Shown here: positions 1 through 16,413 of the stretch, piece by piece
How the letters are laid out: each line of letters opens with the position of its first letter
How positions within the stretch are numbered: the stretch's first letter is position 1
Assembly (NCBI GenBank): GCA_944392585.1
Contig: CALXXA010000028.1
Span: 521-64,520, forward strand
Reading direction: 5' to 3'
DNA from: an uncultured Alphaproteobacteria bacterium
GTDB taxonomy: Bacteria; Pseudomonadota; Alphaproteobacteria; CAAHEQ01; UBA3637
Length of the DNA stretch: 64,000 nucleotides
Notes under the pieces: model-generated
What the model was told of the DNA's origin: nothing
Seen by the model: the letters and a program-made list of their open reading frames with translations, nothing else
The model's database searches: none
Translations under genes and position numbers: made by a program

Positions 1-143
1 ACTCTTTTATGTTCGGCCGGTGTCAGGTTAATGGTTTCGACCACCGCCACAGTCTCCAGTCTGTTGCTGTTGGCTCTGGTTGTGCTCTTTACTTCGTCGA
101 GGTCGGAGGGCTTCCTGACCATGTAAGTTTTAACTGTTTTCAT
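1..143 (-). CDS. 5'-partial hypothetical CDS running off the window start (begins MKTVKTYMVRKPSDLDEV...)
   Basis: ATG at 141-143 on the minus strand, preceded by an AGGAG-like RBS (revcomp of 'catgataatctcc'). The frame stays open to position 1. No homolog recognised. Confidence 0.3.
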   Translation of the reverse strand, partial: MKTVKTYMVRKPSDLDEVKSTTRANSNRLETVAVVETINLTPAEHKR

Positions 144-242
144 GATAATCTCCTTTCGCATCACAATGAATGCTCTTTTTCGAAGAATTATCCAGTTATT
201 TCTGTACTAAATCGCAAGAAATATGCATTATTTTGAGGGGGG

Positions 243-339
243 GTGACCAGCCAGAAGTGACCAGTGACCAGCCAGGAAAAATCGGACCCTATTATAACCC
301 TTGTATTTATTGGGGTTTGAGATATACCCGACCAGCCAG
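243..339. repeat. Cluster of GTGACCAG(CC) direct repeats, iteron-like
   Basis: 'gtgaccagccagaagtgaccagtgaccagccagg' at 243-276 and 'cgaccagccag' at 329-339. These share the TGACCA core with the tandem repeats downstream. Confidence 0.6.
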
Positions 340-367
340 AATTTTTCTGTTTCGCTAGAAATATGGC

Positions 368-385
368 GCGGCTTGCGTCCCCGCA
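368..385. repeat. Left copy of an 18-bp direct repeat, 'gcggcttgcgtccccgca'
   Basis: 17/18 identical to 582-599. The two copies bracket the tandem iteron block. Confidence 0.6.
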
Positions 386-434
386 TATGAAATCTCGCCA
401 GGAAGGACCCATGGCCGGACACCCAACTACCCAG

Positions 435-490
435 GTGACCACCCAAAAGTACCAAGTGACCACCCAAAAGTACCAAGTGACCACCCAAAC
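435..490. repeat. Tandem 21-bp repeat 'gtgaccacccaaaagtaccaa' (~2.7 copies), putative replication iterons
   Basis: Perfect copies at 435-455 and 456-476, a partial copy at 477-490, and a degenerate copy 'ctgaccactgaccacccaaaa' at 536-557. This periodicity is what generates the repetitive 'VVTWYFW' ORFs in the six-frame track. A Rep-like gene lies ~750 bp away. Confidence 0.65.
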
Positions 491-581
491 TTAAAATAAA
501 ATCTTGTAACTCTTTGATATTTATGTATTTTTATCTGACCACTGACCACCCAAAATTTTTTGGTTTTACTGAAAAAACACT

Positions 582-599
582 GCCGCTTGCGTCCCCGCA
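582..599. repeat. Right copy of the 18-bp direct repeat, 'gccgcttgcgtccccgca'
   Basis: Matches 368-385. Confidence 0.6.
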
Positions 600-602
600 G
601 AC

Positions 603-632
603 ATAAAAAAGCCACCTTTTTGATCAGGTGGC
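603..632 (-). terminator. Rho-independent terminator downstream of the nitroreductase gene
   Basis: Hairpin gccacct-N8-aggtggc at 611-632, followed on the minus strand by a T-run (complement of 'ataaaaaa' at 603-610). It sits directly after the minus-strand stop at 656. Confidence 0.6.
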
Positions 633-655
633 TAGCGACCAAAACAACGGAGAAA

Positions 656-1171
656 TTATAAAAATTGAACGGTATCGGACAAGGGCTTCTTGTTCGTATG
701 CGTTGGCGCTGGTGCCGCCGAGGCTGTCGGATAACCGAACATCATGAGCAAAACGGGCACTTCGTTTTTGGGTAAATCAAAAGCCTTGCGCGTTTCATCC
801 GGGTTAAACATATTCACCCAAGTGGAATGAACGCCCAAGTCTGCGGCCTGCAACATCATGTGTGTTGCCACAATGGATGCATCCTCAACGCCCGAAGTAA
901 TAGTCTCATCAGTTGGGTTGTGCCATTCTTGATTTTTATCATAGCAAATAATCATGGCAAGCGGGGCATTGTAGTGACAAGGTGTCACAGCCCGCAACTT
1001 TTCCATGGCCGCCGGTGATTGAACAACATAAACCTTTTGCGGTTGGTTGTTCTTGGCGGTAGGGGCCACTCGACCTGCCTGTAAGATCTTTTGGATTTTT
1101 TCATCTTCAACAGGTTTAGTATCATAACTTCTTTGCGTATAACACACTGTACTCAGTTCTTCAAATGTCAT
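656..1171 (-). CDS. Nitroreductase-family protein, likely cargo of the mobile element
   Basis: 171 aa. NfsB/nitroreductase-fold-like sequence by eye. Clean ORF with a downstream terminator. Confidence 0.65.
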   Translation of the reverse strand: MTFEELSTVCYTQRSYDTKPVEDEKIQKILQAGRVAPTAKNNQPQKVYVVQSPAAMEKLRAVTPCHYNAPLAMIICYDKNQEWHNPTDETITSGVEDASIVATHMMLQAADLGVHSTWVNMFNPDETRKAFDLPKNEVPVLLMMFGYPTASAAPAPTHTNKKPLSDTVQFL

Positions 1172-1249
1172 TGTATATCCTTTCTATTTGTGATTATTAT
1201 ATAGCACTGTTTTTCAAAAAAAGAAAGTAAATTAGTAAGCTAAAAACTT

Positions 1250-2014
1250 TTAAGCCCCTTCATTGGTTTTTGCATATTCTTCCCCGTACATTTCCCATTG
1301 GTCAACCGAGCGCTTCCAATCTTTAATTGGATTGCCATACTTATCACACCACTTTTTGCGGGAATAATAAACATGGAACTGGTAAGGGTTGATTTTATGA
1401 TACTGCCTTACTTGACAATACTCTTCCACTTGTTCTATGGACGGGCTGTTATCACTTAGCCCCAACAGCTGTCCGATTGGAACCGGACCTTTAGAAATTG
1501 AGCCTTGCCTTGGCACACTCCAATTCATTGCCAAGCCTGAGGGAGTTTCTTTTTCATTATATACATTCTGGGCATTCTTTCCTTTCTTATTTATAGCCGC
1601 AGGTAGTTCGCCGGTCGTCCGCAGGTAGTTCGCGCCTGAGTCGCATGGGGATAATTCATCACCGCCTAACACATTGAAATCATTATATTTTAACATCTTT
1701 ATAAGTAGTCCGTTTGCTAAGCGTTTTGTATCAACTTCACCGGTTTTTTTGAGTTTTGCTATAACCCGCTTGATTTGTTGCGGGGATTTTTTTAAGGCCT
1801 CTGAGATCACAGCATAACTGGTCAGCAATTCGCCTTTATGGATAACATATTCATAAAGTTCTTTATCTTGGAAATTTGCCCGCAGTAAGAGATAAAGGTA
1901 CACTTGGCAGACATTTTCATCCGGAAGCCAACGCCAGTTTAAATAACGTCTGTCTAATTTGACAAAGCCAAGAGGAAAATGCGGATCATCCGTTTTTTGT
2001 TTGTTTTGAGACAT
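1250..2014 (-). CDS. Phage/plasmid replication-initiator-like protein (N-terminal winged-helix, DnaD/RepA-like), hypothetical
   Basis: 254 aa. N-terminal region resembles the wHTH of replisome-organiser/Rep proteins. Operonic with the serine recombinase and upstream of the iteron array. Confidence 0.45.
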   Translation of the reverse strand: MSQNKQKTDDPHFPLGFVKLDRRYLNWRWLPDENVCQVYLYLLLRANFQDKELYEYVIHKGELLTSYAVISEALKKSPQQIKRVIAKLKKTGEVDTKRLANGLLIKMLKYNDFNVLGGDELSPCDSGANYLRTTGELPAAINKKGKNAQNVYNEKETPSGLAMNWSVPRQGSISKGPVPIGQLLGLSDNSPSIEQVEEYCQVRQYHKINPYQFHVYYSRKKWCDKYGNPIKDWKRSVDQWEMYGEEYAKTNEGA

Positions 2015-2047
2015 CAGGTGTGTCCTTTCTAATGAGAAGGAAAAGGG

Positions 2048-3760
2048 TTAATCTTTGACGGGTGGAAAACCGAACAGTTTTCTTTGTTCGGTCCAACTGG
2101 CCGGGATAGAGGCCCTGAGCAATTCTCGGGCGGTCATTGTTTTGGGTTGAGCTCCCCGTAAAATGGCATCAATAATATCCGGTGCCAAAAAGGTGAGCCG
2201 AATTTGCGCTCCGATATAGGCTGGATCCTGATGATATACTTCGGCCAGTTCATGCAGGTTTAAGTTCTTGGCTTCCTGGGTTTCACGATAAGTAAAACCG
2301 TTGGCTAAAATCTTAATGAGATAACGGTCTTCTTTCTTGGATGGCTTTTCACCTGAGGTCAAATACAGCATATCCGACACTGTTTCGGGCAAATGAATCT
2401 CCTTGCTCCCACGATGTGTAATCAGGTTAAAGGGGACGGTAGATTCCATCAGTTCCGGCTTTGATTCATTGGGTTTCAAACTGGCTTTTAAGCGTTTATC
2501 CATCAGGTGAAGGGCCAACGGTTTCCAGACCACAATAATTTTATCGGCAAAAATCGTTACCCCTTGAAGCAGAAGGCTGACTATTTTTTCCTTTTGTGTG
2601 CCGGTCAGTTGTTGAAAAACAGAATCCGTTTCACGCATTGCATAAAAGACCTCGCTTTCTTTTAAGTCCGGTTGCACTTGGCAGGCTTCCTGCGTCAGCG
2701 CCTGTAAAACATACGGGGATTTAATCAGCGGATTGAGCAAGTCCATCACCAAATTATCCAACAAGTGCATGGGGATGGCATTCAGCCGACATGAATGAGG
2801 TCCGTATTTTTTGTGGGTGCTATCGGTATAATAATAGTATCGTTTGCCATTTTTTAAAGAATATCTGGGATAAAGTTTTTGCTCACAACATCCGCAAGAC
2901 AGAATCCCTCGAAGTAATCCGTTTTCCTCGTTTTTACTGACCGGTTTTAACCGCCGCCGCCGTATTTTTTGTGAATGTGAATTGAATAACTCCTGGGCGG
3001 CCTCAAAGGTTTTCTTATCAATAATCGGTTGATGCAGGCCCGGGAAAGAAGTCCCTTTATGCGTAATCTCGCCGATATAAACACGATTGTTGAGCATACT
3101 CCTTAAAAAGGTCCAGCCGGGAACTTTTCCCCGGAAAGTGCAATTTTCCCGTAAAAGGGTATGGCCCACCATGGATAAATTACCGGATGATAAAAACAGT
3201 TCATAAACGTGCTTGACCTTTTCGGCATCTTCCGGCACAACCACCAGTTTTTTATTTTCACCTTTATAACCAAACGGGGGAACACCGCCGACCCACATAC
3301 CCTTTTTCTTGGATGCCAGAATCTTATCGCGGATGCGTTCTCCACTGATTTCTCGTTCAAACTGCGCAAAGGATAACAGTACATTCAACATCAATCGCCC
3401 CATGCTATCCGCCGTATTGATATTTTGTGTCACCGATACAAAAGAGCAGTGGTGTTTATCAAAAATTTCAATCATCTTGGAAAAATCCAAAAGAGATCTG
3501 GTCAACCGGTCAATTTTATAAATAACCACCATATCCACTTTATTCGCTTGAATATCGGCCAGTAATTCTTGAAAAGCCGGTCGGTTCATATTACCGCCGG
3601 AATAACCACCGTCATCATAATGTTTGTCTATCAATTCCCATCCTTGATGACGTTGCGCCTTGATATAATTTTCCCCGGCTTCCCGTTGAGCTTCCAGGGT
3701 ATTAAATTGTTTTTCTAATCCTTCGTCTGTTGATTTACGTGTATAGATTGCACATCTCAT
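2048..3760 (-). CDS. Large serine recombinase (resolvase/invertase N-domain plus recombinase and zinc-ribbon domains)
   Basis: 570 aa. N-terminus 'IYTRKSTDEG...KIDRLTRS' carries the catalytic Ser-containing resolvase motifs. Cys-rich region 'CGCC...C' in the C-terminal half. Confidence 0.85.
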   Translation of the reverse strand: MRCAIYTRKSTDEGLEKQFNTLEAQREAGENYIKAQRHQGWELIDKHYDDGGYSGGNMNRPAFQELLADIQANKVDMVVIYKIDRLTRSLLDFSKMIEIFDKHHCSFVSVTQNINTADSMGRLMLNVLLSFAQFEREISGERIRDKILASKKKGMWVGGVPPFGYKGENKKLVVVPEDAEKVKHVYELFLSSGNLSMVGHTLLRENCTFRGKVPGWTFLRSMLNNRVYIGEITHKGTSFPGLHQPIIDKKTFEAAQELFNSHSQKIRRRRLKPVSKNEENGLLRGILSCGCCEQKLYPRYSLKNGKRYYYYTDSTHKKYGPHSCRLNAIPMHLLDNLVMDLLNPLIKSPYVLQALTQEACQVQPDLKESEVFYAMRETDSVFQQLTGTQKEKIVSLLLQGVTIFADKIIVVWKPLALHLMDKRLKASLKPNESKPELMESTVPFNLITHRGSKEIHLPETVSDMLYLTSGEKPSKKEDRYLIKILANGFTYRETQEAKNLNLHELAEVYHQDPAYIGAQIRLTFLAPDIIDAILRGAQPKTMTARELLRASIPASWTEQRKLFGFPPVKD

Positions 3761-4191
3761 TATCCAACTCCAAAAAAGCGTTTTCCCGAGGTGCGTATGC
3801 CTGTGATATGATGGGCAGCTGATGATAAACTGGTGTAATAGGTGCCGTCCATATCTACGCCCCTTTCCAAAATAGTGACACGATAGTCCGTCCCTTTATA
3901 GGTGCGGACTATCACTGTTCCCACCGGATATAAGCTTTTCTTGCGTTGTTGTTTTTCAAAGAGTTTTTTAATCAGGCTTTTTGTCTTTAAGGATAATCCC
4001 CCATGGCGTAATTCTTGCAAACGGTAAGAAACGCGCAAGATGTAAAACTCTTTATTGCCAATGCGGGCTTCTTGATTATACAGTTGCATATAATACTGTT
4101 TCAGGACATGAAAAGGCAAATCCGGCACAGTGCTAATATCAATGTTTAAGTCAAGATTTGTATCAACCATAGCGACTCCTTGTGAATACAA
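3760..4191 (-). CDS. DUF2924-family protein, a frequent partner of large serine recombinases
   Basis: 143 aa. Tail 'SLSSAAHHITGIRTSGKRFFG' is typical of DUF2924. Start overlaps the recombinase stop. Confidence 0.6.
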   Translation of the reverse strand: MYSQGVAMVDTNLDLNIDISTVPDLPFHVLKQYYMQLYNQEARIGNKEFYILRVSYRLQELRHGGLSLKTKSLIKKLFEKQQRKKSLYPVGTVIVRTYKGTDYRVTILERGVDMDGTYYTSLSSAAHHITGIRTSGKRFFGVG

Positions 4192-4321
4192 TAACGCTCT
4201 TTTTACAATTTATATCCAGTTAATTCTGATTATTTTTGGCACTTTCTTCCCCTTGATTGAAAACTTTCAGCAAAGTGGGGAGTATGACCAGCGCCAATTC
4301 GTGTAACGGATTGTTCATGGG

Positions 4322-4534
4322 CTACCTCTTATCAAAAGTGATTGCTGTTTTTTCGGCCGATTCCACCCAAGCATCTAAATCCGCCACATCATAAAAACTA
4401 TGACCGCGTACTTTTCTGAACTTGGGGCCGGAACCGTCCACCCGGTATTTTTGCAAGGTGCGTTGGGCTAACCCCAGATAGGTGGCGGCATCTTTTGTTG
4501 TATAAAAGCGTTGCGTTACTTTTCTTTTTTCCAT
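4322..4534 (-). CDS. AlpA/excisionase-family HTH phage regulatory protein
   Basis: 70 aa. 'TTKDAATYLGLAQRTLQKYRVDGSGPKF' matches the AlpA/Xis-type HTH. Confidence 0.7.
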   Translation of the reverse strand: MEKRKVTQRFYTTKDAATYLGLAQRTLQKYRVDGSGPKFRKVRGHSFYDVADLDAWVESAEKTAITFDKR

Positions 4535-4768
4535 CTTTTATTTCTCCTTAATTTATTGTTGACATTGCTCGCCTTATGCGAACAAGGCAAAGATAAAGCT
4601 TAAAAAGAAGAATAAACATTGAGATTTTTTTGAAGAAAACTAGCATTTTTTTAAAAATCCCAGTCTGCGAAAAAAAGTGTTGAGTACAAAAAACTTGTTC
4701 CTGTTCCCCCTGAAAAATATTGCCTTTTTATCGCCTTTTGACTATATCTTTGGATATAGGAGTATCTG

Positions 4769-5530
4769 ATGAAGGAATTTTACAGGAATTTATTTCAAGT
4801 ATATTTGTTTATGGCCCGGGCTTTATTTCCGAAAGATTCTGCTCTGCAACGCGAATTTTTACTGATAAAGGTCTCAGGCCTTGAAAAGGAAATGCCCGAA
4901 GTTTTTGAAAAATTGGGTGGGGTTTCACTTTTACGCCTGTACCGATCGGCCAAAGAGATGAAAAAATTACAAGAGCATATTCAAACAACCGATTGGTCTT
5001 ATGTCATGCGGATGTTAAAAACAATGCAGTCCATGCAACAGGATCCCAAATTGGCCGGTAAAGTCAGCCTCAACAAAGCGGCATTTGTTTTGGATAAAGA
5101 CATCAAAGAGGGAAAAGCTAAAGATTCCCAAAAGAACAATGCCCCTCGCTATAAAGATATCTGGCGCCAATATCGGGGTGTGGCCCATCTGATAGAGGCC
5201 CTTCAAATCATGAAAATGCAGTATCTGGAATGGACAGACAATCCTATCCCTTTTGAAGCCTTTTTGGCGTTGGCACTGGATCACCTGAATTTGGCCGCCT
5301 ATCAACAAGGGGAAGAACTGAAGAAATTGTACGAAGGACATACCAAAAAGCCCATTGTGCCGGCGGATGAATTTTTTGCGATAGAAAAACCAAAACTGGC
5401 CGAAGATGAATTAGCCATTGCCTTGGTGAAAGAGTGCCTTTTAAGCGACCCAACACTCAGTAAGAAAATCAGTAAATACCGCGCCCCGGTCTTTGACTAT
5501 GGGAACTTTGTCATTCCAAGCGATAACTAA
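4769..5530 (+). CDS. Hypothetical protein (253 aa) whose 3' end is duplicated downstream of the Abi cassette
   Basis: Clean ORF, GC-richer than the core genome, divergent from the alpA-like gene. The C-terminal 14 codons plus stop recur at 7104-7159. Confidence 0.55.
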   Translation: MKEFYRNLFQVYLFMARALFPKDSALQREFLLIKVSGLEKEMPEVFEKLGGVSLLRLYRSAKEMKKLQEHIQTTDWSYVMRMLKTMQSMQQDPKLAGKVSLNKAAFVLDKDIKEGKAKDSQKNNAPRYKDIWRQYRGVAHLIEALQIMKMQYLEWTDNPIPFEAFLALALDHLNLAAYQQGEELKKLYEGHTKKPIVPADEFFAIEKPKLAEDELAIALVKECLLSDPTLSKKISKYRAPVFDYGNFVIPSDN

Positions 5531-5541
5531 AATTGCTTAGC
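5486..5541. repeat. Direct repeat A (~56 bp) flanking the AbiE cassette; spans the last 14 codons and stop of CDS 4769-5530
   Basis: 'ccggtctttgactatgggaactttgtcattccaagcgataactaaaattgcttagc' is ~49/56 identical to 7104-7159. Confidence 0.8.
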
Positions 5542-5576
5542 TGATGTCATATTTTATCTATTTTGTAAAAAAATGC

Positions 5577-5605
5577 TTGATTTTCTCCTAAAACTCTAAT
5601 ATAAT
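5577..5605 (+). promoter_or_regulatory. Near-consensus sigma70 promoter for abiEi: TTGATT, 17-nt spacer, TATAAT
   Basis: -35 at 5577-5582, -10 at 5600-5605, RBS AGGAGA at 5615-5620, ATG at 5625. A 6-bp inverted repeat ctccta/taggag (5585-5590 and 5614-5619) flanks the -10 and is a possible autoregulatory operator. Confidence 0.5.
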
Positions 5606-5624
5606 TGGAGTAATAGGAGAAAAT

Positions 5625-6212
5625 ATGATATATTCTTTTGACGATTTAAAAACAAAATATAGTAATTACGCCAAAATTTACGATAAAATACGATATGAAG
5701 TAAAGGCAGGCCGCTTGATACCTATTGCACGTGAATTATATGAAACCGATCCTACGACCGATGGACAATATCTGGCCGGACGTATTTTCGGACCGTCGTA
5801 TTTATCTTTTGATTATGCACTGTATGTTTATTCCCTCATTCCGGAAACTGTTTATAAGACATATACATCTGCCACATTTAACAAGCGCAGAAAAAAGAAG
5901 TATCAAAATAATTTTGGTTTGTTTACATACAGGGATGTTCCGGCAGAAGTATACCCTCTTGCCGTATTAATTCATGAGGAGAATGGCTATTCTTACCAAA
6001 TTGCAACGCCCGAAAAGGCATTATGCGATAAATTATACACTTTACCGCCCATCAAGAATTTGACAGAATTAAAGGAACTTTTGTTTGAAGATTTGCGGAT
6101 AGATGAAGGAGAGTTCGCCAAGCTTAATAAGGAAGTATTAGAAAAAATAGCTCCTCTTTATCATTCAACCAATCTTCACATGCTTAGTAAGCTGATTAGG
6201 AGAACTTTATAA
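5625..6212 (+). CDS. AbiEi-like antitoxin/transcriptional regulator (type IV TA, N-terminal wHTH)
   Basis: 195 aa. 'VKAGRLIPIARELYE' matches the AbiEi wHTH signature (G-x-L-x-R-[IV]-[AR]-R-G-x-Y). Stop overlaps the ATG of the downstream DUF1814 gene (ATAATG). Confidence 0.65.
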   Translation: MIYSFDDLKTKYSNYAKIYDKIRYEVKAGRLIPIARELYETDPTTDGQYLAGRIFGPSYLSFDYALYVYSLIPETVYKTYTSATFNKRRKKKYQNNFGLFTYRDVPAEVYPLAVLIHEENGYSYQIATPEKALCDKLYTLPPIKNLTELKELLFEDLRIDEGEFAKLNKEVLEKIAPLYHSTNLHMLSKLIRRTL

Positions 6213-7072
6213 TGCAAACCATTTTAACCCAGATGTTGGAACAATATCAAACAAAAACTCTGACGGAAAAGAAAAACGCTATAAAGGAGGTTGTCCAAGA
6301 GATTGCCTTATGCGGGTTATCTCGAGCCGATTTCTTTAAACATGTTGCATTTTATGGCGGTACAGCATTGCGTATTTTTTATGGCCTCGATCGTTTTTCT
6401 GAAGATCTGGATTTTTCGCTTATATCTCCAAATCCGGATTTTGATTTAAAACCATATTTTAATGGGCTGGAAACAGAACTGGCTTCGGTCGGCTTAAAAT
6501 TTTCCATAGAAGAAAAAATAAAGTCCGTTGATTCTGACATTAAATCAGCCTTTTTAAAGGGAAATACAAAAGAACATATTGTCAGTATTTATGGCGTGCA
6601 GGACATCAATATTAACCCTAGTGAGATAATCAAAATAAAGTTTGAGATTGATACCAATCCTCCGGCCTTTGCCTCCTTTGAGAATAAATACCGATTACTG
6701 CCGTCACCATATCAAGTTAAACTTTATGATATGCCGTCATTATTTGCCGGTAAGGTTCATGCAGTTATTTGTCGGACTTGGAAAAATCGTGTTAAAGGGC
6801 GTGATTTATATGACTATATATTTTACCTGTCGCACCGATCAAAAATAAATTTACCCCATTTAAAAGCAAGACTTGTAGATTCTGGTGTTTTAAAGGACGA
6901 TGATACATTTACGATAGAAACTTTAAGAACGATGTTAAATGAACGTTTTGAAGCTATTGATTACGAAAGTGCAAAACAGGATGTATTACCGTTTATTACC
7001 GATGCGAATAAATTGGATCTATGGAGTAAGGAGTTTTTCATAGATATTAGTAAAAATCTTGCGGATAAATGA
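6212..7072 (+). CDS. AbiEii/AbiGii-family nucleotidyltransferase toxin (DUF1814)
   Basis: 286 aa. 'FYGGTALRIFYGLDRFSEDLDFSL' is the hallmark AbiEii NTase motif (GG...DLDF). Translationally coupled to the upstream wHTH gene. Confidence 0.8.
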   Translation: MQTILTQMLEQYQTKTLTEKKNAIKEVVQEIALCGLSRADFFKHVAFYGGTALRIFYGLDRFSEDLDFSLISPNPDFDLKPYFNGLETELASVGLKFSIEEKIKSVDSDIKSAFLKGNTKEHIVSIYGVQDININPSEIIKIKFEIDTNPPAFASFENKYRLLPSPYQVKLYDMPSLFAGKVHAVICRTWKNRVKGRDLYDYIFYLSHRSKINLPHLKARLVDSGVLKDDDTFTIETLRTMLNERFEAIDYESAKQDVLPFITDANKLDLWSKEFFIDISKNLADK

Positions 7073-7103
7073 TCAATAACAAATAAAGATTTACTTCTAA
7101 TAT

Positions 7104-7159
7104 CCGGTCTTTGACTATGGTAATTTTGATATTCCAAGCGATAATTAAAATTGCCTAGC
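7104..7159. repeat. Direct repeat B; encodes '...PVFDYGNFDIPSDN*', i.e. the tail of the 4769-5530 protein with mostly synonymous changes
   Basis: Alignment to 5486-5541. Differences are ggg/ggt, aac/aat, gtc/gat and aac/aat. 'attgcctagc' recurs at 7208-7217. Confidence 0.8.
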
Positions 7160-7179
7160 GGATAAAGATACGAAACGAA

Positions 7180-7206
7180 AAAGGCGCAAAGTTATGCCTT
7201 TTTATG
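7180..7206 (+). terminator. Possible rho-independent terminator after the Abi cassette
   Basis: aaaggc-N10-gccttt followed by tttta. Confidence 0.35.
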
Positions 7207-7374
7207 GATTGCCTAGCAAAGAAAGTTTTGGGTGGTTCATTTGCTTAAATAGCACTTTTGCTTTCATCTCACAAAAAACACAGATGAATTGTGGTAAATG
7301 GGCATTTTCACATTGAGCCTAAAATTCATCACAAGAGCCTTTATAACTTAGCTTTCATCGCCTCATTTCAGGCA

Positions 7375-7400
7375 CGAAAAAAGCCCGTCTAAAACGGGCT
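7375..7400 (-). terminator. Rho-independent terminator of tRNA-Ala
   Basis: agcccgt-ctaaa-acgggct hairpin, followed on the minus strand by TTTTTTCG. Confidence 0.6.
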
Positions 7401-7411
7401 GAATCTTAAAT

Positions 7412-7487
7412 TGGTGGAGGTAAGGAGGATCGAACTCCTGACCTTTGCAATGCCATTGCAACGCTCTCCCAGCTGAGCTATACCCCC
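7412..7487 (-). tRNA. tRNA-Ala, anticodon GGC
   Basis: Reverse complement: GGGGGTATAGCTCAGCTGGGAGAGCG TTGCA-ATGGCAT-TGCAA AGGTCAGGAGTTCGATCCTCCTTACCTCCACCA. Cloverleaf with a 7-nt anticodon loop centred on GGC. CCA is encoded. Confidence 0.9.
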
Positions 7488-7548
7488 GTTTGATAAAATA
7501 TGAGTATATATAAATTTTTTTTTTATACAAGAAAAAAATAATTTTTTC

Positions 7549-8262
7549 TTATTTTAAATGACCTTCCATCTTTAATGAAGTTGCTCCAGTCCTTGAAATA
7601 ATAATATGGTCGCTTAATTCAATGGATAAAGAAACAGCGACATCTTTGAGTTGTTGGGTTGTTTTTATGTCTTGTATGGAAGGACGGGCATCTCCAGAAG
7701 GATGATTATGAATTAAAACCATAGACGTCGCACCAAGTTCCAAAGCTTTGTGAATAATTTCTCTCGGATATAAAGGAACTTTATTAATGGTTCCTTCCCC
7801 CATTTTCTGATCTAAAAGCAAGTGAAGTTTTGCGTCTAAAAATAAAATATGAAAAGATTCTTTTTTCTCACGACCAAGAGTCGAATAGCAATAATCCATA
7901 ATTTTAGCTCTGTTTCCCAAAATAGGTTGATTGATTAAATCTCTTCTTAAAATGGTTGCATGAGCGGCGCGAATAAGTTTAAACAATACTATTGTATTTT
8001 CTTTGATATATTTAAACCGATAAAGTTGTTCCGCCTCGGCGCATAAGACGTTTCCAAGCGTGTAAAACTCTGCTAAAAGCTGTTTAGCCAGCAGTTTCAC
8101 GTCTTTTCTGGGAATAGAATACATTAAAAGAGCTTCTAAAATCTCGTAATCATCAAAAGAACTTAAATCTGTTTTTAATATTTTTTCTTTGGTTCTCTCT
8201 CTGTGCCCGTGCAACAGAAGTAAAGGAGATTGATCATCTGGATGAGAAGGTTTCTTTTTCAT
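7549..8262 (-). CDS. radC: RadC-family JAB-domain protein
   Basis: C-terminus 'HNHPSGDARPSIQDIKTTQQLK' is the JAMM/RadC motif. The start probably lies at the internal Met (MKKKPSHPDD...), not the track's 8412 start, which would overlap map by 180 bp. Confidence 0.7.
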   Translation of the reverse strand: MKKKPSHPDDQSPLLLLHGHRERTKEKILKTDLSSFDDYEILEALLMYSIPRKDVKLLAKQLLAEFYTLGNVLCAEAEQLYRFKYIKENTIVLFKLIRAAHATILRRDLINQPILGNRAKIMDYCYSTLGREKKESFHILFLDAKLHLLLDQKMGEGTINKVPLYPREIIHKALELGATSMVLIHNHPSGDARPSIQDIKTTQQLKDVAVSLSIELSDHIIISRTGATSLKMEGHLK

Positions 8263-9067
8263 TTTTAACTGTCTTTTTCTGAATAAAATAAGGAGGATAA
8301 TCATATCCGGCCGGAGATAAAGTAAATACCTCAGGCCCATTTTTTGTAATTCCAATGGTGTGTTCAAATTGTGCGGACAGAGAGCGATCTTTTGTAATAG
8401 CCGTCCATCCATCTGATAAAATTAATGTATCAGAACCTCCAATATTAACCATAGGTTCTACTGTAAAAATCATTCCTTCTTGAATAGGCATTCCGTCTCC
8501 TTTTTTCCCATAGTTTAATACATTTGGTAATAAATGAAAGGCTTGCCCTACGCCATGTCCACAAAAATCTTCCACAACAGAGAAACGTTCTTTTGAGGCG
8601 CATAACTCGATGGCATGACCAATGTCTCCCATGGTGTTTCCTATTTTTGCCTGATTAATTCCGGCCCACATGGCATGAAAAGCGCATTCGACTATCCTTT
8701 TTGCCTTAATAGAAGGAGTTCCGACATAGTACATTCTGCTGCTGTCTCCATACCATCCGTTTAAAATAGGAGTAATGTCTATGTTGACGATATCTCCGTC
8801 GTAAAGGACTTTATCTCCTGGTATTCCATGGCAGACAATATGATTCGCCGAAATACAACTGGCTTTTGGATAGCCTCTGTATCCAAGAGTTGCCGGAATG
8901 GCTCCATGATCTCTCATGAATTCTTCCATTAAAGAGTCTAATTTTCCCGTTGTAATGCCGGGGACGACAAAAGGCGTGATATAATCTAGCGTTAAGGCAG
9001 CCAAATGGCCGGCTTGACGCATTCCTTCAAATTGTTCTACTGCATATAATGCTATTTGTTTATTCAT
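8234..9067 (-). CDS. map: Methionine aminopeptidase type I
   Basis: 277 aa. M24-family metal-ligand pattern (D..D..H..E..E) and typical MAP sequence. Confidence 0.85.
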   Translation of the reverse strand: MNKQIALYAVEQFEGMRQAGHLAALTLDYITPFVVPGITTGKLDSLMEEFMRDHGAIPATLGYRGYPKASCISANHIVCHGIPGDKVLYDGDIVNIDITPILNGWYGDSSRMYYVGTPSIKAKRIVECAFHAMWAGINQAKIGNTMGDIGHAIELCASKERFSVVEDFCGHGVGQAFHLLPNVLNYGKKGDGMPIQEGMIFTVEPMVNIGGSDTLILSDGWTAITKDRSLSAQFEHTIGITKNGPEVFTLSPAGYDYPPYFIQKKTVKNEKETFSSR

Positions 9068-9156
9068 TTTGACTTTCTCTTTTCGTTGAGTTAGAATATA
9101 CCCGTTGAAGTGATTTTTCTACTTAATTTTTAATTTTTTTATAAAAAGGTGTGAAA

Positions 9157-9246
9157 ATGACGAATAGACAGAAAATGGCATTGATGATTTTTATTTTAGC
9201 TGTAATATGTTGTTTGTTACTTTTAAACTCTCCTTTGGCAAACTAG
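9157..9246 (+). CDS. Possible 29-aa hydrophobic small protein (MTNRQKMALMIFILAVICCLLLLNSPLAN)
   Basis: ATG with an upstream GGTG/AAAGG-like RBS. Single predicted TM helix. Sits in the rpmF upstream region. Not verifiable by homology here. Confidence 0.2.
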   Translation: MTNRQKMALMIFILAVICCLLLLNSPLAN

Positions 9247-9468
9247 TTTCTTAAAAAAGACTTCTCCGAAAAGATAATAAAATTTTAAAGAAAGTAGAGA
9301 AAAAGACTTTGTTTTTTTAAGTTCTATGTTTCTTTTTATGGAAAAGAGTTATAAAAAGTACTTGCAAAAAGTTAAAAAATGTGTATGTAATAAGGTCTTA
9401 AAATAGTTTTTTTATTATTCAGTCACGGATAATAAGTTTGTTTTATTTATGAAGGAAAGAGTAAGAAA

Positions 9469-9654
9469 ATGGCTACACCAAAGAAAAAAACGTCTAAGTC
9501 TCGCAGAGATATGCGCCGTTCTCATCATGCCTTGGCAAAGAATTCCATGGTAGAATGTCCCAAGTGCGGCGAGATGATGCGTCCGCATCATGTTTGCGAA
9601 GCATGTGGCTTTTATAATAAGCGTGAAGTTATCGTAACTGCTAAAGCCGAATAA
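9469..9654 (+). CDS. rpmF: 50S ribosomal protein L32
   Basis: 61 aa. '[18 protein letters not shown]' plus a CxxC...CxxC zinc ribbon. Confidence 0.9.
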
Positions 9655-9668
9655 AAAAGGCGTGATAA

Positions 9669-10709
9669 ATGGCTGATCCAATCGTTATCTCTATTGATGT
9701 CATGGGAGGGGATAATGCTCCTGAAACTGTCGTTGAAGGGGTAAAACTAGCAAGTGAAAAACAAAAAGATGTTTTTTTCCTGCTCTTCGGAGATGAACGA
9801 AGAATTGCTCCCGTGGCAAAGTCTAAAGGACTTCCTGAGTCGGTCTATAAAATTTATCACACAGATGAGATAATAAAAGCTGATGAAAAACCATCGGCAG
9901 CTGTTCGATATGGTCGTAACAGCAGTATGTGGAAAGCAATTTATGCTGTAAGGACGGGGGAGGCTAAAGCGGTTGTTTCTGCCGGAAATACAGGGGCCTT
10001 TATGGCAATTTCTAAAATTTGTTTAGGAACAATTGCCGGCGTTGACAGGCCGGCTTTGGCGGCGATGATGCCGACTTCTAAAATCGGACAACCTGTCGTA
10101 ATGTTGGATCTTGGGGCAAATGCAGAGTGTAATGCAACAAATTTAGTTGAATTTAGTATTATGGGATCTGTTTTCTATCATTTGTTATATAAAGTCAAAA
10201 ATCCTTCTGTTAGCCTTTTAAATATAGGATCGGAAGAAACAAAAGGAAGAGAAGAAATCAGACAAGCCGCATTAATTTTAAAAGAAAATAAAAATAAAGT
10301 GAATTATTCCGGCTTTGTGGAAGGGTTTGATATTAACTCTGGGAAAACACATGTCATCGTTTCTGACGGATTTTCTGGAAATGTTGCTTTGAAAACAATA
10401 GAAGGAACGGCGCGATTGGTAAAAAATGCCTTTAAAAAAGCGATCCAATCTTCATGGCTTGCAAAAATAGGCTTTGTTTTAACTATGCCGACGTTATTAA
10501 AATTAAAAAAGCGGATGGATCCTCGTCTTTATAATGGGGCTATGTTTCTAGGATTGAACGGTATTTCTGTTAAAAGCCATGGAGGCGCAGATGCTTTGGC
10601 TTATTCCTATGCCGTTGCTGTCGCAATTGACTTGGCTCGGCATGATTTATGCGAAAAAATCCGTGTTGAATTAGAAGATTTAATCTTAACTTCCGACGCA
10701 ATTTCATAA
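9669..10709 (+). CDS. plsX: Phosphate acyltransferase PlsX
   Basis: 346 aa. 'ISIDVMGGDNAP' N-terminus, typical of PlsX. Conserved rpmF-plsX-fabH order. Confidence 0.9.
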   Translation: MADPIVISIDVMGGDNAPETVVEGVKLASEKQKDVFFLLFGDERRIAPVAKSKGLPESVYKIYHTDEIIKADEKPSAAVRYGRNSSMWKAIYAVRTGEAKAVVSAGNTGAFMAISKICLGTIAGVDRPALAAMMPTSKIGQPVVMLDLGANAECNATNLVEFSIMGSVFYHLLYKVKNPSVSLLNIGSEETKGREEIRQAALILKENKNKVNYSGFVEGFDINSGKTHVIVSDGFSGNVALKTIEGTARLVKNAFKKAIQSSWLAKIGFVLTMPTLLKLKKRMDPRLYNGAMFLGLNGISVKSHGGADALAYSYAVAVAIDLARHDLCEKIRVELEDLILTSDAIS

Positions 10710-10730
10710 GATCATTTTTATGAGGGGAAA

Positions 10731-11708
10731 ATGTCTGTTATCCGTTCAAAAATTTTGGGAGTTGGCTCCTATTTACCTGAAAGAGTTATGACAAATGATG
10801 ATTTATCTAAAATGGTGGATACTTCTGATGAGTGGATTGTTGAGCGAACGGGTATTAAAATTAGGCATATTGCTTCAGAATATGAGATGACTTCGGATTT
10901 GGCCGTGAAAGCAGCTCAAGATGCTTTGGGAAAAAATCATATATTGATAGGAGATTTGGATGCGGTCATCGTTGCGACGACGACTCCAGACAGAACGTTC
11001 CCGGCAACAGCGACAAAGGTTCAAACGCAATTAGGAATGACGCGTGGATTTGCTTTCGATTTGCAAGCTGTGTGTTCCGGGTTTCTGTATGCCATGACGA
11101 TGGCGGATAGTTTAATTCGTTCCGGTCAAGTAAAAACAGCTTTAGTTATCGGGTCTGAAACGTTATCTCGGTTGGTGGATTGGAAAGATAGAAATACGTG
11201 TGTCTTATTCGGAGATGGGGCCGGAGCGGTTGTCTTATCCGCAGCTCAAGGGGATGGAACAGTTGAAGATACGGGAATCTTAAATACAAAAATTTTCTCT
11301 GATGGTTCTTTCGGGGATCTGTTATATACAACTGGAGGACCTTCCTATTCTCAAACGGTGGGAACAATTTTTATGAACGGGAGAGAAGTTTTTCGGCAAG
11401 CAGTCGGAAAACTAGCAACCGCAGCAGAACAAGTCCTGTCAGAGGTCGGTGTGAAAAGTGATGATTTATCTTGGTTCATTCCTCATCAAGCTAATTTACG
11501 AATTATCGATTCAACAGCTAAAAAATTAGGGCTTCCATTATCTAAAGTCGTTGTGACTGTTCATCATCATGCGAATACTTCCGCGGCTTCTATTCCTTTA
11601 GCTTTGGCTGAAAAAGTCAATTCTGGGGAAATTAAAAAAGGAGACTTGCTATTGTTTGATGCAATGGGCGGCGGGTTTACTTGGGGCGCTATGTTGGCGA
11701 GATTTTAA
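10731..11708 (+). CDS. fabH: 3-oxoacyl-ACP synthase III
   Basis: 325 aa. Active-site Cys context 'AVCSGFLYA', plus 'HQAN' and C-terminal 'GGGFTWGA'. Confidence 0.9.
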   Translation: MSVIRSKILGVGSYLPERVMTNDDLSKMVDTSDEWIVERTGIKIRHIASEYEMTSDLAVKAAQDALGKNHILIGDLDAVIVATTTPDRTFPATATKVQTQLGMTRGFAFDLQAVCSGFLYAMTMADSLIRSGQVKTALVIGSETLSRLVDWKDRNTCVLFGDGAGAVVLSAAQGDGTVEDTGILNTKIFSDGSFGDLLYTTGGPSYSQTVGTIFMNGREVFRQAVGKLATAAEQVLSEVGVKSDDLSWFIPHQANLRIIDSTAKKLGLPLSKVVVTVHHHANTSAASIPLALAEKVNSGEIKKGDLLLFDAMGGGFTWGAMLARF

Positions 11709-11779
11709 AAAAAACTTGATTTTTTATACTGTTCTTTTAAAATGACAAGTAACTAAAATTGATGCTTTATGAGGAAGAG

Positions 11780-12082
11780 ATGAAAAATATTACACGTGCG
11801 GATTTATCAGAGGCTGTTTACAGAGATCTAGGCTTGTCTTATACAGAATCCGAAAAATTAGTTGATTTGGTTTTTGAAGAAATAATCAAAGCTTTTGAGG
11901 CAAATGAAGATGTTAAAATTTCTTCTTTTGCTAGTTTCTATTTAAAAAAGAAAAAAGCGCGAGTCGGACGTAATCCAAAAACAGGGAAGGAGTATCCTAT
12001 TACCTCTAGAACAATTTTATCTTTTTGTCCTTCTCAGATTCTAAAAAATGAAGTAGCGGCGGCTCTAAAAAATAAGGATTAA
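11780..12082 (+). CDS. ihfA: Integration host factor alpha subunit
   Basis: '[14 protein letters not shown]...[12 protein letters not shown]' is the IHF/HU fold. The start is placed at the internal Met, which has an AGGAAG RBS. The track ORF begins at 11759. Confidence 0.8.
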
Positions 12083-12083
12083 A

Positions 12084-12407
12084 ATGAAATCTGAAGGCGC
12101 CTATCGTACCATTGCTGAAGTTTCCGATATGTTGAATGTTCCAGCTCATGTATTACGCTTTTGGGAAACACAATTTCATCAGATTAAGCCTGTTAAACGA
12201 GTTGGGGGAAGGCGTTATTATAGAAATGAAGATGTCAATCTTATCGCTCAAATCAGAGACTATCTCTATAAAGATGGGTATACGATTAAGGGTGTTCAAA
12301 AGATTCTTAAATCTTCAAAGAAAGAAGAAACTTCATCAAGTGATGTCTTAGAGAAATTTGTTGATGAGATGAAAGAAATTCGGAACTATCTTAAACAATA
12401 TATATAA
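12084..12407 (+). CDS. MerR-family transcriptional regulator
   Basis: 107 aa. '[22 protein letters not shown]' is the MerR HTH. Conserved ihfA-MerR pairing in alphaproteobacteria. Confidence 0.8.
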
Positions 12408-12762
12408 TCCTATATGGCCGAAAGAACTTGACTATACCTGGAACAGAGCTCCAAAATCAAGGCTCAATATGAAAGATTACTCGACTCATGTTATAATAAA
12501 TAATTATGAGAATGGGGGACAGCTTAAAGGCTTATAAAATGTTCAAGGTGTTATGCTTGGTTTGAAAAAATTTATTTCTGTTTGAGTAAATATAAAAGAA
12601 TAAAAAGCAGTTCTTTTTATATGAAAAAAGTTAATAAAAATTTTTTTATTTTCTAGAATTATCTGTTGGTTAAGATAAAACTTGATAATAAGCTGAGTGG
12701 ATATAGGGGAACCAGCGTCTATCAGACGGCTCTGTTTATTTAGTTGAAGTTTATTCAATTGA

Positions 12763-12797
12763 AAAATCCCCTACTTTAAGGGCAGGGGATTTTTATT
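12763..12797. terminator. Bidirectional rho-independent terminator (ppdK 3' end)
   Basis: aaaatcccct-N11-aggggatttt with flanking T/A runs. Confidence 0.6.
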
Positions 12798-12814
12798 GTT
12801 AATGAAACAAAAGA

Positions 12815-15475: not shown

Positions 15476-15652
15476 GGATCAGTTATCCTTTCACATAGTT
15501 AAATAAAAAATACACCGTTTTTTAAAGAAAAACAAAAAACGAATCTCTTTCAAAACGAGAAAAAACTTTCTAAAACAGCATTGTTTTTAACACGGTTTCA
15601 ATGACTTGGCAAGGACTTTTTTTACCTTTTTATGGAGTTAAAAAAGAGATTT

Positions 15653-16174
15653 TTATCTTTTCCTGTAATAAGATAAAATGTAATCTTCGATTGGTCTGCT
15701 TTCTTGCAGCTTAAGAGAAATCTTCGGATTATCGTCCTTGAATAACCTAATTCCCTTACCGAGAAGTATAGGAGCCGTCATTAATATGTATTCATCTAAT
15801 AAATCTTCTTTTATTAAAATGTTGGTAATTTCAGAACCTCCCATCACCCAAATGTTTTTTCCTTCTTCTGCTTTGAGTTTTTGGACAAGACCCATAATGT
15901 TTTCATGGATAAAAGTTACATGTTCGTCATTTTGTTTTAAATAGTGCGTAATGACATATACTTTCTTTTCTTTGTACGGCCATTGAGCTAAACTTTTTAC
16001 TTGGTCATATGTTTTCCGACCCATTAAAATAACGTCCACGGAAGATAAAAAGGTTTGAAAATCTTCTGATTTTCGGCGGCTTTCTTTTATTAAACAATCA
16101 CTATTTCCATTTTCATCTGCGATGAAACCGTCTAAAGATGTTGTTATATATAAAATACATTTACGCTTTGACAT
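15653..16174 (-). CDS. Dihydrofolate reductase-family protein (RibD C-terminal domain-like)
   Basis: 173 aa. 'ILYITTSLDGFIAD...ILMGRKTY' is the RibD_C/DHFR-like fold. Confidence 0.7.
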   Translation of the reverse strand: MSKRKCILYITTSLDGFIADENGNSDCLIKESRRKSEDFQTFLSSVDVILMGRKTYDQVKSLAQWPYKEKKVYVITHYLKQNDEHVTFIHENIMGLVQKLKAEEGKNIWVMGGSEITNILIKEDLLDEYILMTAPILLGKGIRLFKDDNPKISLKLQESRPIEDYILSYYRKR

Positions 16175-16337
16175 CCGTACTTCTCCTTATATAAAAAATC
16201 ATGTTGATTTATTATGAAATGTTTTCTACGAAATGGCAAGTTTCTTTTATGAGTTTTTTATATAAAATAAAACTAACAATCAATAAACAGAGATATTTTT
16301 TGTATCTCAGTGAAATTTAAACGGAATTTTTTTAAGG

Positions 16338-16413
16338 TGGTGCCCAGAGGCGGAATCGAACCACCGACACGGAGATTTTCAGTCTCCTGCTCTACCGACT
16401 GAGCTATCTGGGC
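16338..16413 (-). tRNA. tRNA-Phe, anticodon GAA
   Basis: Reverse complement: GCCCAGATAGCTCAGTCGGTAGAGCAGGAGA-CTGAAAA-TCTCCGTGTCGGTGGTTCGATTCCGCCTCTGGGCACCA. Confidence 0.9.

Follow-up and report, generated by a model that had tools for sequence, protein, structure and literature searches.

Some strains of a gut alphaproteobacterium carry, at the 3' end of a tRNA-Ala gene, an integrated element that a comparison of contigs found missing in other strains of the same species. The element was analyzed from a 64,000-nucleotide stretch of an uncultured Alphaproteobacteria bacterium (GenBank assembly GCA_944392585.1, contig CALXXA010000028.1), which we call the window. Positions 1-7410 of the window (7,410 bp, ~31% of 24.15 kb) are probably the tRNA-proximal third of a 24,154-bp site-specific integrative island, which would be inserted by a large serine recombinase, replicate after excision from repeats lying downstream of a phage-type initiator gene, and move between hosts with outside help; this grading covers the proposed mechanism as a whole. 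A preliminary description, made from the letters of the window alone, had taken the same block for an integrated plasmid-like mobile element with a replication module. An integrated mobile element it is, but the replication module is of phage type, with no plasmid Rep match and no DnaA box.

The extent of the element was defined by comparison with contigs of the same species. Through the methionine aminopeptidase encoded nearby, four contigs were retrieved (L009, L010, L011 and L013; related loci carry L numbers throughout) that are 99.86% identical to window 7411-16383 and lack the element. At this empty site the gene order is RadC, tRNA-Ala and ferritin with nothing between, and the junction reads ...CCTCCACCAA|AAACTTTAAAAG, starting with AAACTTT after the bar; the occupied junction in the window reads ...CCTCCACCAA|TTTAAGATTCAG. 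The boundary at the tRNA 3' end is thus exact to the base, and element-specific DNA begins at 7410 and extends leftwards. A look-up of the Rep protein retrieved L016, a 35-kb contig that carries the same element in the same species, shows 7 differences from the window in 7,500 bases (1-7500) and extends past window position 1. The far junction was found in L020 by a look-up of the ferritin gene and reads ...GAAAAAATCA CCACCAA AAACTTTAAAAG. Joining L016 and L020 gives the 24,154-bp element with a 7-bp direct repeat, CCACCAA, on both sides, and places its far end ~16.7 kb upstream of window position 1. The preliminary description had put one end of the element at the 3' end of tRNA-Ala(GGC) and the other upstream of position 1; both placements were borne out. 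It had named the presence of the block at the same locus in all related genomes as a finding that would refute it; the block is missing from that locus in the contigs of the same species. The presence/absence polymorphism, precise junctions and flanking direct repeats are those of a site-specific genomic island.

The sequence common to attL and attR is only the 7 bp CCACCAA. The insertion leaves the tRNA-Ala gene intact, and the gene forms the B arm of the attachment site. No second att copy was found within the 64-kb window. In the related loci searched, the duplication was limited to the 7-bp core, and no longer copy of the tRNA 3' segment turned up. A tandem composite of two elements was ruled out, because the 24-kb element contains no internal att-like copies. 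An apparent 9/12 match of the outer arms, met in a search for dyad symmetry in the reconstructed attP and attB, was likewise discarded: it was not above background, and one of the arms is the terminator hairpin. The conserved near-end motif GAACCACCCAAAAC (Table 1) resembles both the iteron described below (2 mismatches) and the attB/attR sequence CCACCAAAAAC. An Rfam scan of 1-7700 matched the tRNA only.

The same ends recur at many sites. Scanning metagenomes with the conserved near-end sequence and looking up homologues of the element gene orf253 brought the number of near junctions to 35, which fall at 14 distinct tRNA-Ala genes (9 GGC, 5 CGC). The tRNA bodies vary among the hosts, and the DNA right after ...CCACCAA is constant. 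One metagenome contig, L042, has the order far end, CCACCAA, near end, that is, an attP-type junction as for an excised circle or a concatemer; all of the orf253-carrying contigs examined for free circles were integrated. L038 holds a mini-element (899-3450, 2.5 kb) at a tRNA-Ala(GGC) gene, with both conserved ends and the CCACCAA repeat; lacking both recombinase and Rep, it may represent a derivative that is not autonomous but could be mobilised in trans. In L029 (10500-10770) and L032 (850-2167), the far end lies inverted next to CCACCAA and 66 nt of the near end, and a GC-rich motif homologous to window 368-385 borders on another copy, 58 nt long, of the far-end tip, an arrangement that may reflect inversion or secondary recombination.

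Eight species-representative alphaproteobacterial metagenome-assembled genomes contain the element at 90-98% nucleotide identity, in flanks that are unalignable or 72-79% identical. Between hosts, the ratio of nonsynonymous to synonymous substitution rates (dN/dS) of the recombinase, Rep and HTH_17 genes is 0.04-0.21 (two comparisons with identical HTH_17 proteins excluded), with 0.10-0.13 for the recombinase and less than 0.09 for the HTH_17 protein. These ratios indicate that the core genes are functional and under purifying selection.

Domain searches confirmed the gene order and coordinates that had been read on the minus strand, namely a helix-turn-helix (HTH) gene, DUF2924, a 570-aa recombinase, a Rep-like gene and a nitroreductase (Table 1). 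The recombinase contains the Resolvase (PF00239, residues 4-156), Recombinase (PF07508, 176-259) and Zn_ribbon_recom (PF13408, 282-342) domains, and the motif AIYTRKSTDEG with Ser10 can be read from the translation. It therefore combines the N-terminal resolvase domain with a serine nucleophile and the C-terminal recombinase and zinc-ribbon domains of serine integrases, and for CcrA/B/C and XisF its scores stay well short of the family cutoffs. The genes of L016 and L020 include no tyrosine integrase, so the 570-aa protein is the sole recombinase of the 24-kb element. We infer that it is the element's integrase, because the element has no other recombinase, the three defining domains are all present, and the flanking repeats are very short, as is typical of serine-recombinase elements (PMC5704250). 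The preliminary description had remarked that large serine recombinases usually use sites other than tRNA genes; the element at hand departs from that rule, with a serine recombinase only and 14 tRNA-Ala genes as sites.

The DUF2924 gene precedes the recombinase gene, with one nucleotide shared between its stop codon and the recombinase start; the DUF2924 start codon is probably at 4170, consistent with a gene call of 136 aa. DUF2924 corresponds in part to the RAMA DNA-binding domain (PMC11342252), and a DUF2924-recombinase gene pair has been reported in Wolbachia WO regions (PMC10299305). The HTH protein encoded by the first gene of this leftward operon had been labelled AlpA, a label that did not hold: its Pfam match is HTH_17, of the excisionase/MerR type, not the AlpA family, and its PHROG match is family 66, 'excisionase and transcriptional regulator'. 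Divergent from the operon lies orf253, which had no match in Pfam, PHROG, NCBIfam or PADLOC. Its relatives, 74 protein clusters that are all at least 70% identical, are neither named nor assigned a domain and are restricted to the element family, and the gene was found in nearly every related locus. From its position, orf253 is a candidate regulator or repressor. The intergenic region between the two transcription units contains one promoter-like match (4619-4646), which is not above chance expectation.

The Rep protein itself had no Pfam or NCBIfam match, and its identity comes from its relatives, of which 7,227 representatives were found. PHROG 2514 was matched by 66 of the 67 aligned members, and 33 match 'replication initiation O-like'; many match O-like or replisome-organizer families, and the Pfam matches on family members are HTH_36, Phage_rep_org_N, DnaD_N and Phage_rep_O. 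A RepL match occurred in just one of the 67. In an alignment-based AlphaFold2 model, residues ~20-112 fold confidently into a winged helix, which a disordered linker connects to a small C-terminal domain of helices (~190-250); a single-sequence AlphaFold model was discarded (pLDDT 33). Compared with viral structures (BFVD), the best matches of the model were annotated 'Replisome organizer' (E 7e-12), while comparison with PDB folds returned generic winged helices only and PDB sequence searches nothing specific. Rep is thus predicted to be a phage replisome-organizer, DnaD-like or lambda-O-like initiator with a winged helix and a separate C-terminal domain, a family of mobile-element replication initiators and not an unrelated housekeeping protein, the outcome that would have told against the preliminary description. 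Membership of a plasmid Rep family was ruled out, since the family matches are to phage organizer, DnaD_N and O-like proteins and none of 72,556 plasmid records matched by DNA search. An iteron-type theta plasmid of the Rep_3/RepA class shares the iterons and AT-rich region, but was rejected on the Rep family and the DnaA box.

The rep gene is in frame with the recombinase gene, and the separator (2015-2050) consists of TAA and 11 codons. In L048 (6483-8993), a TAA-to-TAC change fuses recombinase and Rep into a single 836-aa open reading frame (ORF), which may have arisen by chance or may point to read-through. Among family members, the replication module is swapped while the recombinase stays 93-96% identical (Table 1).

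Downstream of rep lies a cluster of direct repeats. The preliminary description had counted at least nine TGACCA-core repeats, and the count stands at eight exact copies and one CGACCA, all on the plus strand within 244-548. The 13-mer TGACCASCCARAA has seven matches with at most one mismatch on the same strand inside 244-555 (312 bp), compared with two matches, both with 2 mismatches, in the other 63 kb, a clustering well beyond chance. The 21-bp tandem, which had been called perfect with 2.7 copies, is real but only nearly perfect (431-489, 2.8 copies, 97% identity). An 18-bp direct repeat said to bracket the array is also real, and its exact core of 15 nt, GCTTGCGTCCCCGCA, recurs at 371-385 and 585-599. 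Instead of enclosing the array, it forms the end of a longer, 56-nt duplicated segment (330-385 and 544-599, 75% identical). The repeats fall into two paralogous origin-like blocks, A and B, each with a GC-rich inverted-repeat motif, one or two iterons, an AT-rich spacer and a three-iteron cluster. Block A lies ~100 bp upstream of an operon of small ORFs that begins with orf103 and is kept in nearly all relatives (L001-L006, L042, L045, L048 and L050). Block B, whose tandem iteron reads GGGTGGTCA on the rep strand and whose 46-bp spacer has a GC content of ~17%, is optional, being absent from L002, L003, L004 and L005. Direct repeats of ~20 bp adjoining an AT-rich region are the arrangement of iterons. 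We propose with moderate confidence that the blocks form an origin bound by Rep, because they lie directly downstream of rep, are phased at 21 bp and flank an AT-rich spacer; the confidence is no more than moderate because the repeats do not track the type of Rep. The link between Rep and the repeats is weaker than the preliminary description had assumed, given the module swaps in relatives.

Put together, these features suggest how the island could work, although its excision, replication and transfer are read from the sequence. For integration, the serine recombinase would recombine attP, formed by the joined ends, with attB, formed by the tRNA-Ala 3' end and the DNA downstream of it. Excision would need a directionality factor, for which the DUF2924/RAMA-like protein or the HTH_17 excisionase-like protein are the best candidates. 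Expression of the whole leftward operon (HTH_17, DUF2924, recombinase and Rep) would be set at the divergent region shared with orf253. The excised circle might then replicate from the TGACCA-iteron blocks downstream of rep, where the winged-helix initiator would bind the iterons flanking an AT-rich stretch and recruit a host or helper helicase. A helper, either a phage or a conjugative element, would move the element between hosts; such a helper is very likely, because no transfer or packaging genes were recognised and yet near-identical elements occur in different species. The host could profit from AbiE, a type I restriction-modification system with a Fic protein, and the nitroreductase.

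Several observations weigh against this reading, at the attachment site and at the proposed origin. Serine integrases are characterized by att sites of only ~50 bp that have imperfect dyad symmetry and a 2-bp crossover. No dyad symmetry clearly above background surrounds the core in the reconstructed attP and attB, and a 7-bp overlap would also be compatible with a tyrosine recombinase, though the element has none. The attP-type junction rests on one 2.3-kb contig and could also come from a tandem array, and degenerate copies of the element exist (L001, L004, L008, L030 and L033). At the repeats, no DnaA box TTATCCACA with at most one mismatch was found in 1-900, and a clean covariation of Rep and iterons across relatives was tested and not borne out. 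L045 has the same iterons with a Rep that is 29% identical; L050 keeps both blocks with a DUF6291-type protein, sharing only the C-terminal domain, in place of the winged-helix Rep; and the DNA available for L052 and L054, which have the DUF6291-type module, contains no TGACCA cluster. Given their position directly before the small-ORF operon, the repeats could also be operators. It is possible, although somewhat unlikely, that they are not an origin but binding sites through which another element protein (DUF2924/RAMA, HTH_17 or the 103-aa protein) controls that operon: besides the missing DnaA box and the persistence of the repeats where Rep is replaced or highly diverged, block A always stands at the same distance from the orf103 operon, beside a TTGCGA-17-GATAAT promoter-like site. 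Against this, L042 retains block A without the operon, and an arrangement in which two iteron groups phased at 21 bp stand on either side of an AT-rich spacer, right after an initiator gene, is that of an origin. Iteron groups around an AT-rich spacer downstream of the initiator gene are the origin layout of Staphylococcus aureus pathogenicity islands (SaPIs) and phage-inducible chromosomal islands (PICIs). The layout also matches the origins of PICI-like elements (PLEs) (PMC7145576), and the roles of operator and origin are not mutually exclusive.

For the element as a whole, three other accounts have to be weighed against, or within, that of a helper-dependent integrative island. That it is an immobile, decaying prophage remnant which merely lies beside a tRNA gene would fit the lack of structural and lysis genes and the truncated relatives listed above, but this account is very improbable and already largely refuted by the presence/absence between near-identical strains with base-exact junctions, the same ends at 14 different tRNA-Ala genes, the attP-type junction, purifying selection on the core genes, and an element identity of 95-98% across species whose flanks cannot be aligned or share only 72-79% identity. 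The identity of the helper leaves two further possibilities. The element may be a phage satellite of the PLE/PICI type, in which a helper phage triggers excision, the island replicates and is packaged in helper capsids, and the defence cargo protects the host population; the helper phage would perhaps also supply or induce the directionality factor. We consider this possible but somewhat unlikely, although the phage ancestry of the core genes and a PLE-like architecture favour a satellite lifestyle. All core genes have PHROG relatives, the small ORFs included (PHROG 1933, 1090 and 21303), conjugation genes were not found in the element, the cargo is rich in defence genes, and the leftward operon faces a divergent gene in the manner of a regulator/HTH switch. 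Such a switch is a feature of SaPIs and PICIs. The large serine recombinase, winged-helix DnaD-N-like initiator, iteron origin and mostly unknown genes parallel the architecture of PLEs (PMC7145576, PMC9638900). On the other hand, no capsid, terminase, size-redirection or packaging gene was recognised in the full element, no helper phage was identified, 24 kb with a large cargo exceeds most PICIs, and neither Rep nor the far end had a relative in 2.9 million IMG/VR viral contigs, an absence that is not decisive; a recombinase query of the same collection returned one 30%-identical protein only, with no DUF2924 beside it. Alternatively, and in our view unlikely, the element could be an integrative mobilizable element that a co-resident conjugative plasmid or integrative and conjugative element moves via a helper-mimicking oriT, as with Salmonella genomic island 1 (SGI1) or PIME. 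SGI1 has a comparable module set. The modules resemble those of PIMEs (integrase, AlpA-like HTH, replicase with origin, and a large immune-gene accessory region; bioRxiv 10.64898/2026.01.12.698999), the spread between species is wide, and one may speculate that the conserved GC-rich inverted-repeat motif (361-390, 580-600) is part of an oriT. However, no relaxase, traJ, trbJ/trbL or coupling-protein gene was found in the element, its core genes are related to those of phages and not of plasmids, and a megablast search of window 1-7500 against 72,556 plasmid records and a phage collection gave no match.

The features of the element and of its relatives are collected in Table 1.

Table 1. Features of the tRNA-Ala island in the window and, where a locus is named, in related loci
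Feature	Position	Strand	Basis or remarks
103-aa phage-related ORF (orf103), 5' part	1-143	-	Start ATG 143-141; L016 gene calls; PHROG 21303
Origin-like block A	242-416	+	Three TGACCAGCCAG-type iterons 242-277; moderately AT-rich spacer; iteron 329-341; GC-rich inverted-repeat motif 361-390
Origin-like block B	424-600	+	21-bp x 2.8 tandem 431-489; spacer 490-535; TGACCA iterons 536 and 543; GC-rich motif 582-599
Terminator-like hairpin after nitroreductase	633-610	-	Terminator scan
Nitroreductase (cargo)	656-1171	-	PF00881, E 1e-25
Predicted phage replisome-organizer-type initiator (Rep), 254 aa	1250-2014	-	PHROG 2514 'DnaD-like helicase loader', E 1e-13
Large serine recombinase, 570 aa	2048-3760	-	PF00239, E 9e-39; PF07508; PF13408; PHROG 95 'integrase', 5e-103
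DUF2924 (RAMA-like DNA-binding) protein	3760-4191	-	PF11149, E 2e-29
32-aa ORF after HTH_17 gene	4220-4318	-	Gene calls in L016
70-aa HTH_17 protein (excisionase/AlpA-like), first gene of leftward operon	4322-4534	-	PF12728, E 2e-10; PHROG 66
Divergent intergenic region, orf253/HTH_17 operon	4535-4768		Presumed control region
orf253, 253 aa, hallmark gene	4769-5530	+	Divergent from HTH_17 operon
AbiE cassette	5546-7103	+	AbiEi antitoxin 5625-6212; AbiEii nucleotidyltransferase toxin 6212-7072
Conserved non-coding near end (P' arm)	7164-7410	-	85-98% identity in all related loci, any host
Iteron-like or attB-like GAACCACCCAAAAC	7226-7238	-	Conserved, in non-coding near end
Terminator hairpin AGCCCGTTTTAGACGGGCT and T-run	7382-7400	-	Terminator scan; element-borne, 11 nt past tRNA CCA
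att core, tRNA-proximal CCACCAA copy	7411-7417	-	Last 6 tRNA bases and A; same 7 bp at far junction in L020
Host tRNA-Ala(GGC)	7412-7487	-	ARAGORN; Rfam tRNA, 62 bits
Candidate attP (joined ends), ~50-60 bp			GTAGAAAATGAAAAAATCACCACCAATTTAAGATTCAGCCCG
attP junction sequence			GAAAAAATCACCACCAATTTAAGATTCAG
Empty attB junction sequence			CCTCCACCAAAAACTTTAAAAG
Swapped module, DUF6291-type 209-aa and 214-aa proteins	L050 5989-7264; L052 582-1857; L054 647-1922		
Swapped module, Rep257 (29% identical) and 224-aa protein	L045 5778-7277		

The cargo of the element is modular and rich in defence genes, which occupy swappable slots. The adjacent AbiEi antitoxin (PADLOC 2e-61) and AbiEii toxin (PADLOC 3e-111; PF08843, E 9e-31), whose genes overlap at 6212, constitute a type IV toxin-antitoxin (abortive infection) system of the AbiE kind. 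A 60-bp direct repeat, the duplicated 3' end of orf253, flanks the cassette (5486-5545 and 7104-7163), and the cassette is optional: L002, L003, L006 and L008 lack it, with breakpoints exactly at the repeat. The nitroreductase, followed by the terminator that had been noted for it, is absent from L003 and L005. Three small phage-related ORFs form the operon beyond the repeats; those after the 103-aa ORF match PHROG 1933 and 1090. In the part of the element outside the window, a type I restriction-modification system has an embedded Fic protein: the Fic/HTH_24 gene (L016 12460-13518), a member of the PADLOC candidate defence family PDC-S72 (E 1e-119), sits between hsdM and a second hsdS. The remaining genes there encode YgjP-like, phosphatase, acetyltransferase, NUDIX and kinase-like proteins and a metallophosphoesterase. 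Across relatives, the position following the small ORFs is taken by restriction-modification systems of type I or type III, and in L001 by a gene whose translation reads like a DUF262 (GmrSD-type) protein. Relaxase, secretion-system, capsid, terminase and lysis genes were not recognised among the genes of the full element.

The base composition is mosaic, as had been described. The core module has a GC content of 0.41-0.46, compared with 0.369 +/- 0.025 for the host (1-kb windows), and contains GC-rich runs such as CCGCCGCCGCCG (2951-2962). The AbiE cassette, previously called AT-rich, is so relative to the rest of the element, but its GC content of 0.354 is host-like.

Beyond the tRNA, the longest RadC ORF (7549-8412, 287 aa) overlaps the methionine aminopeptidase gene (8234-9067) by 179 nt; gene callers predict a 237-aa RadC with an internal start, an ordinary start-codon ambiguity. 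The strains also differ at a second site, a tRNA-Phe gene (16338-16413), with a breakpoint at ~16383. In L009, L010 and L011 (1-2686), which are from strains without the tRNA-Ala island, a tyrosine integrase and a Bro-N gene adjoin tRNA-Phe; in the window this site is empty, because pyruvate kinase directly follows the tRNA.

Taken together, the element is a real and fairly unusual mobile element and not a new kind of system; integrative replicative islands with defence cargo are already well known. What is unusual is the target, a tRNA 3' end for a large serine recombinase element. It offers a clean natural case of this combination: the sites attB, attL and attR, and a candidate attP, are located with single-base precision, and attB occurs in 14 natural variants. 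Such a set is useful for understanding, and possibly engineering, the site choice of serine integrases. It also offers the DUF2924/RAMA protein as a candidate for a conserved partner of the recombinase, and a mobile carrier of defence genes (AbiE, type I and type III restriction-modification, a DUF262-like gene and Fic) across species of a poorly known, uncultured group of gut alphaproteobacteria. A bolder and rather doubtful interpretation is that it represents an undescribed family of helper-dependent, satellite-like islands in uncultured gut and rumen Alphaproteobacteria, whose recombinase has evolved the strategy of tyrosine integrases, which is to aim at the very 3' end of tRNA genes and spare the tRNA, with the DUF2924/RAMA-like protein as a partner in site selection or directionality. 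If this were true, the conserved DUF2924-recombinase pairing, seen also in Wolbachia WO, would define a new class of accessory factors for serine recombinases.

Among known systems, SCCmec (CcrAB), Tn4451 and phages with serine integrases (Bxb1, phiC31 and A118) share the three-domain recombinase and the very short end repeats (PMC5704250). Serine-recombinase elements typically integrate inside protein-coding genes, often disrupting them (PMC5704250), and tRNA 3' ends are the usual targets of tyrosine integrases (PMC5704250, PMC11476347), whereas our element sits at the very last bases of a tRNA gene, which stays intact. A limited literature search found no described serine-recombinase element at a tRNA 3' end, although large computational surveys of recombinases may hold such cases. 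In Wolbachia phage WO, also an alphaproteobacterial mobile element, the gene directly preceding a serine recombinase gene is likewise a DUF2924 gene (PMC10299305); WO is a complete tailed prophage, and the likeness is one of reported gene order.

PIMEs and SGI1 resemble the element in their integrase, AlpA-like HTH, replicase and origin modules, in an immune-rich accessory region of more than 50% and in interspecies spread (bioRxiv 10.64898/2026.01.12.698999). PIMEs, however, are defined by the co-occurrence of integrase, alpA and replicase with the conjugative genes trbJ and trbL (bioRxiv 10.64898/2026.01.12.698999), and our element, with a serine recombinase and phage-related core genes, is without trbJ/trbL, traJ and relaxase genes; membership was ruled out because it contains no trb or tra domains. 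PICIs and SaPIs are likewise site-specific islands in which a divergent regulator/HTH switch leads into an operon with excision and replication genes, iterons surround an AT-rich stretch just downstream of rep, and accessory or defence genes lie at the far side. These features of PICIs and SaPIs are established knowledge. The differences are that the integrase here is a serine and not a tyrosine recombinase, encoded inside the rightward-type operon, that Rep is a small organizer-type protein and not a primase-helicase, and that no capsid- or packaging-redirection genes were recognised. On these grounds, and with HTH_17 in place of Phage_AlpA, a Gram-negative PICI was ruled out.

The closest analogue is the PLE satellite of Vibrio. 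The target here is the tRNA-Ala 3' end, whereas PLEs target a Vibrio cholerae repeat. The two have no sequence relationship (Rep is without a RepA_N match, because it gave no Pfam match at all); the host is an uncultured gut alphaproteobacterium, no helper is known for the element, and its defence would come from standard cargo systems (AbiE and type I restriction-modification). Large serine recombinases are said to be rare in Gram-negative bacteria (PMC7145576). A PLE is, like our element, a chromosomal island of ~18-24 kb that is moved (in our element, probably) by such a recombinase (PMC7145576, PMC9638900). Both also have a winged-helix, DnaD-N-like initiator without a helicase or primase of their own, an iteron origin (here a proposed one) in a non-coding region, other genes that are mostly of unknown function with no recognisable structural genes among them, and an anti-phage role, which in our element is suggested by its cargo.

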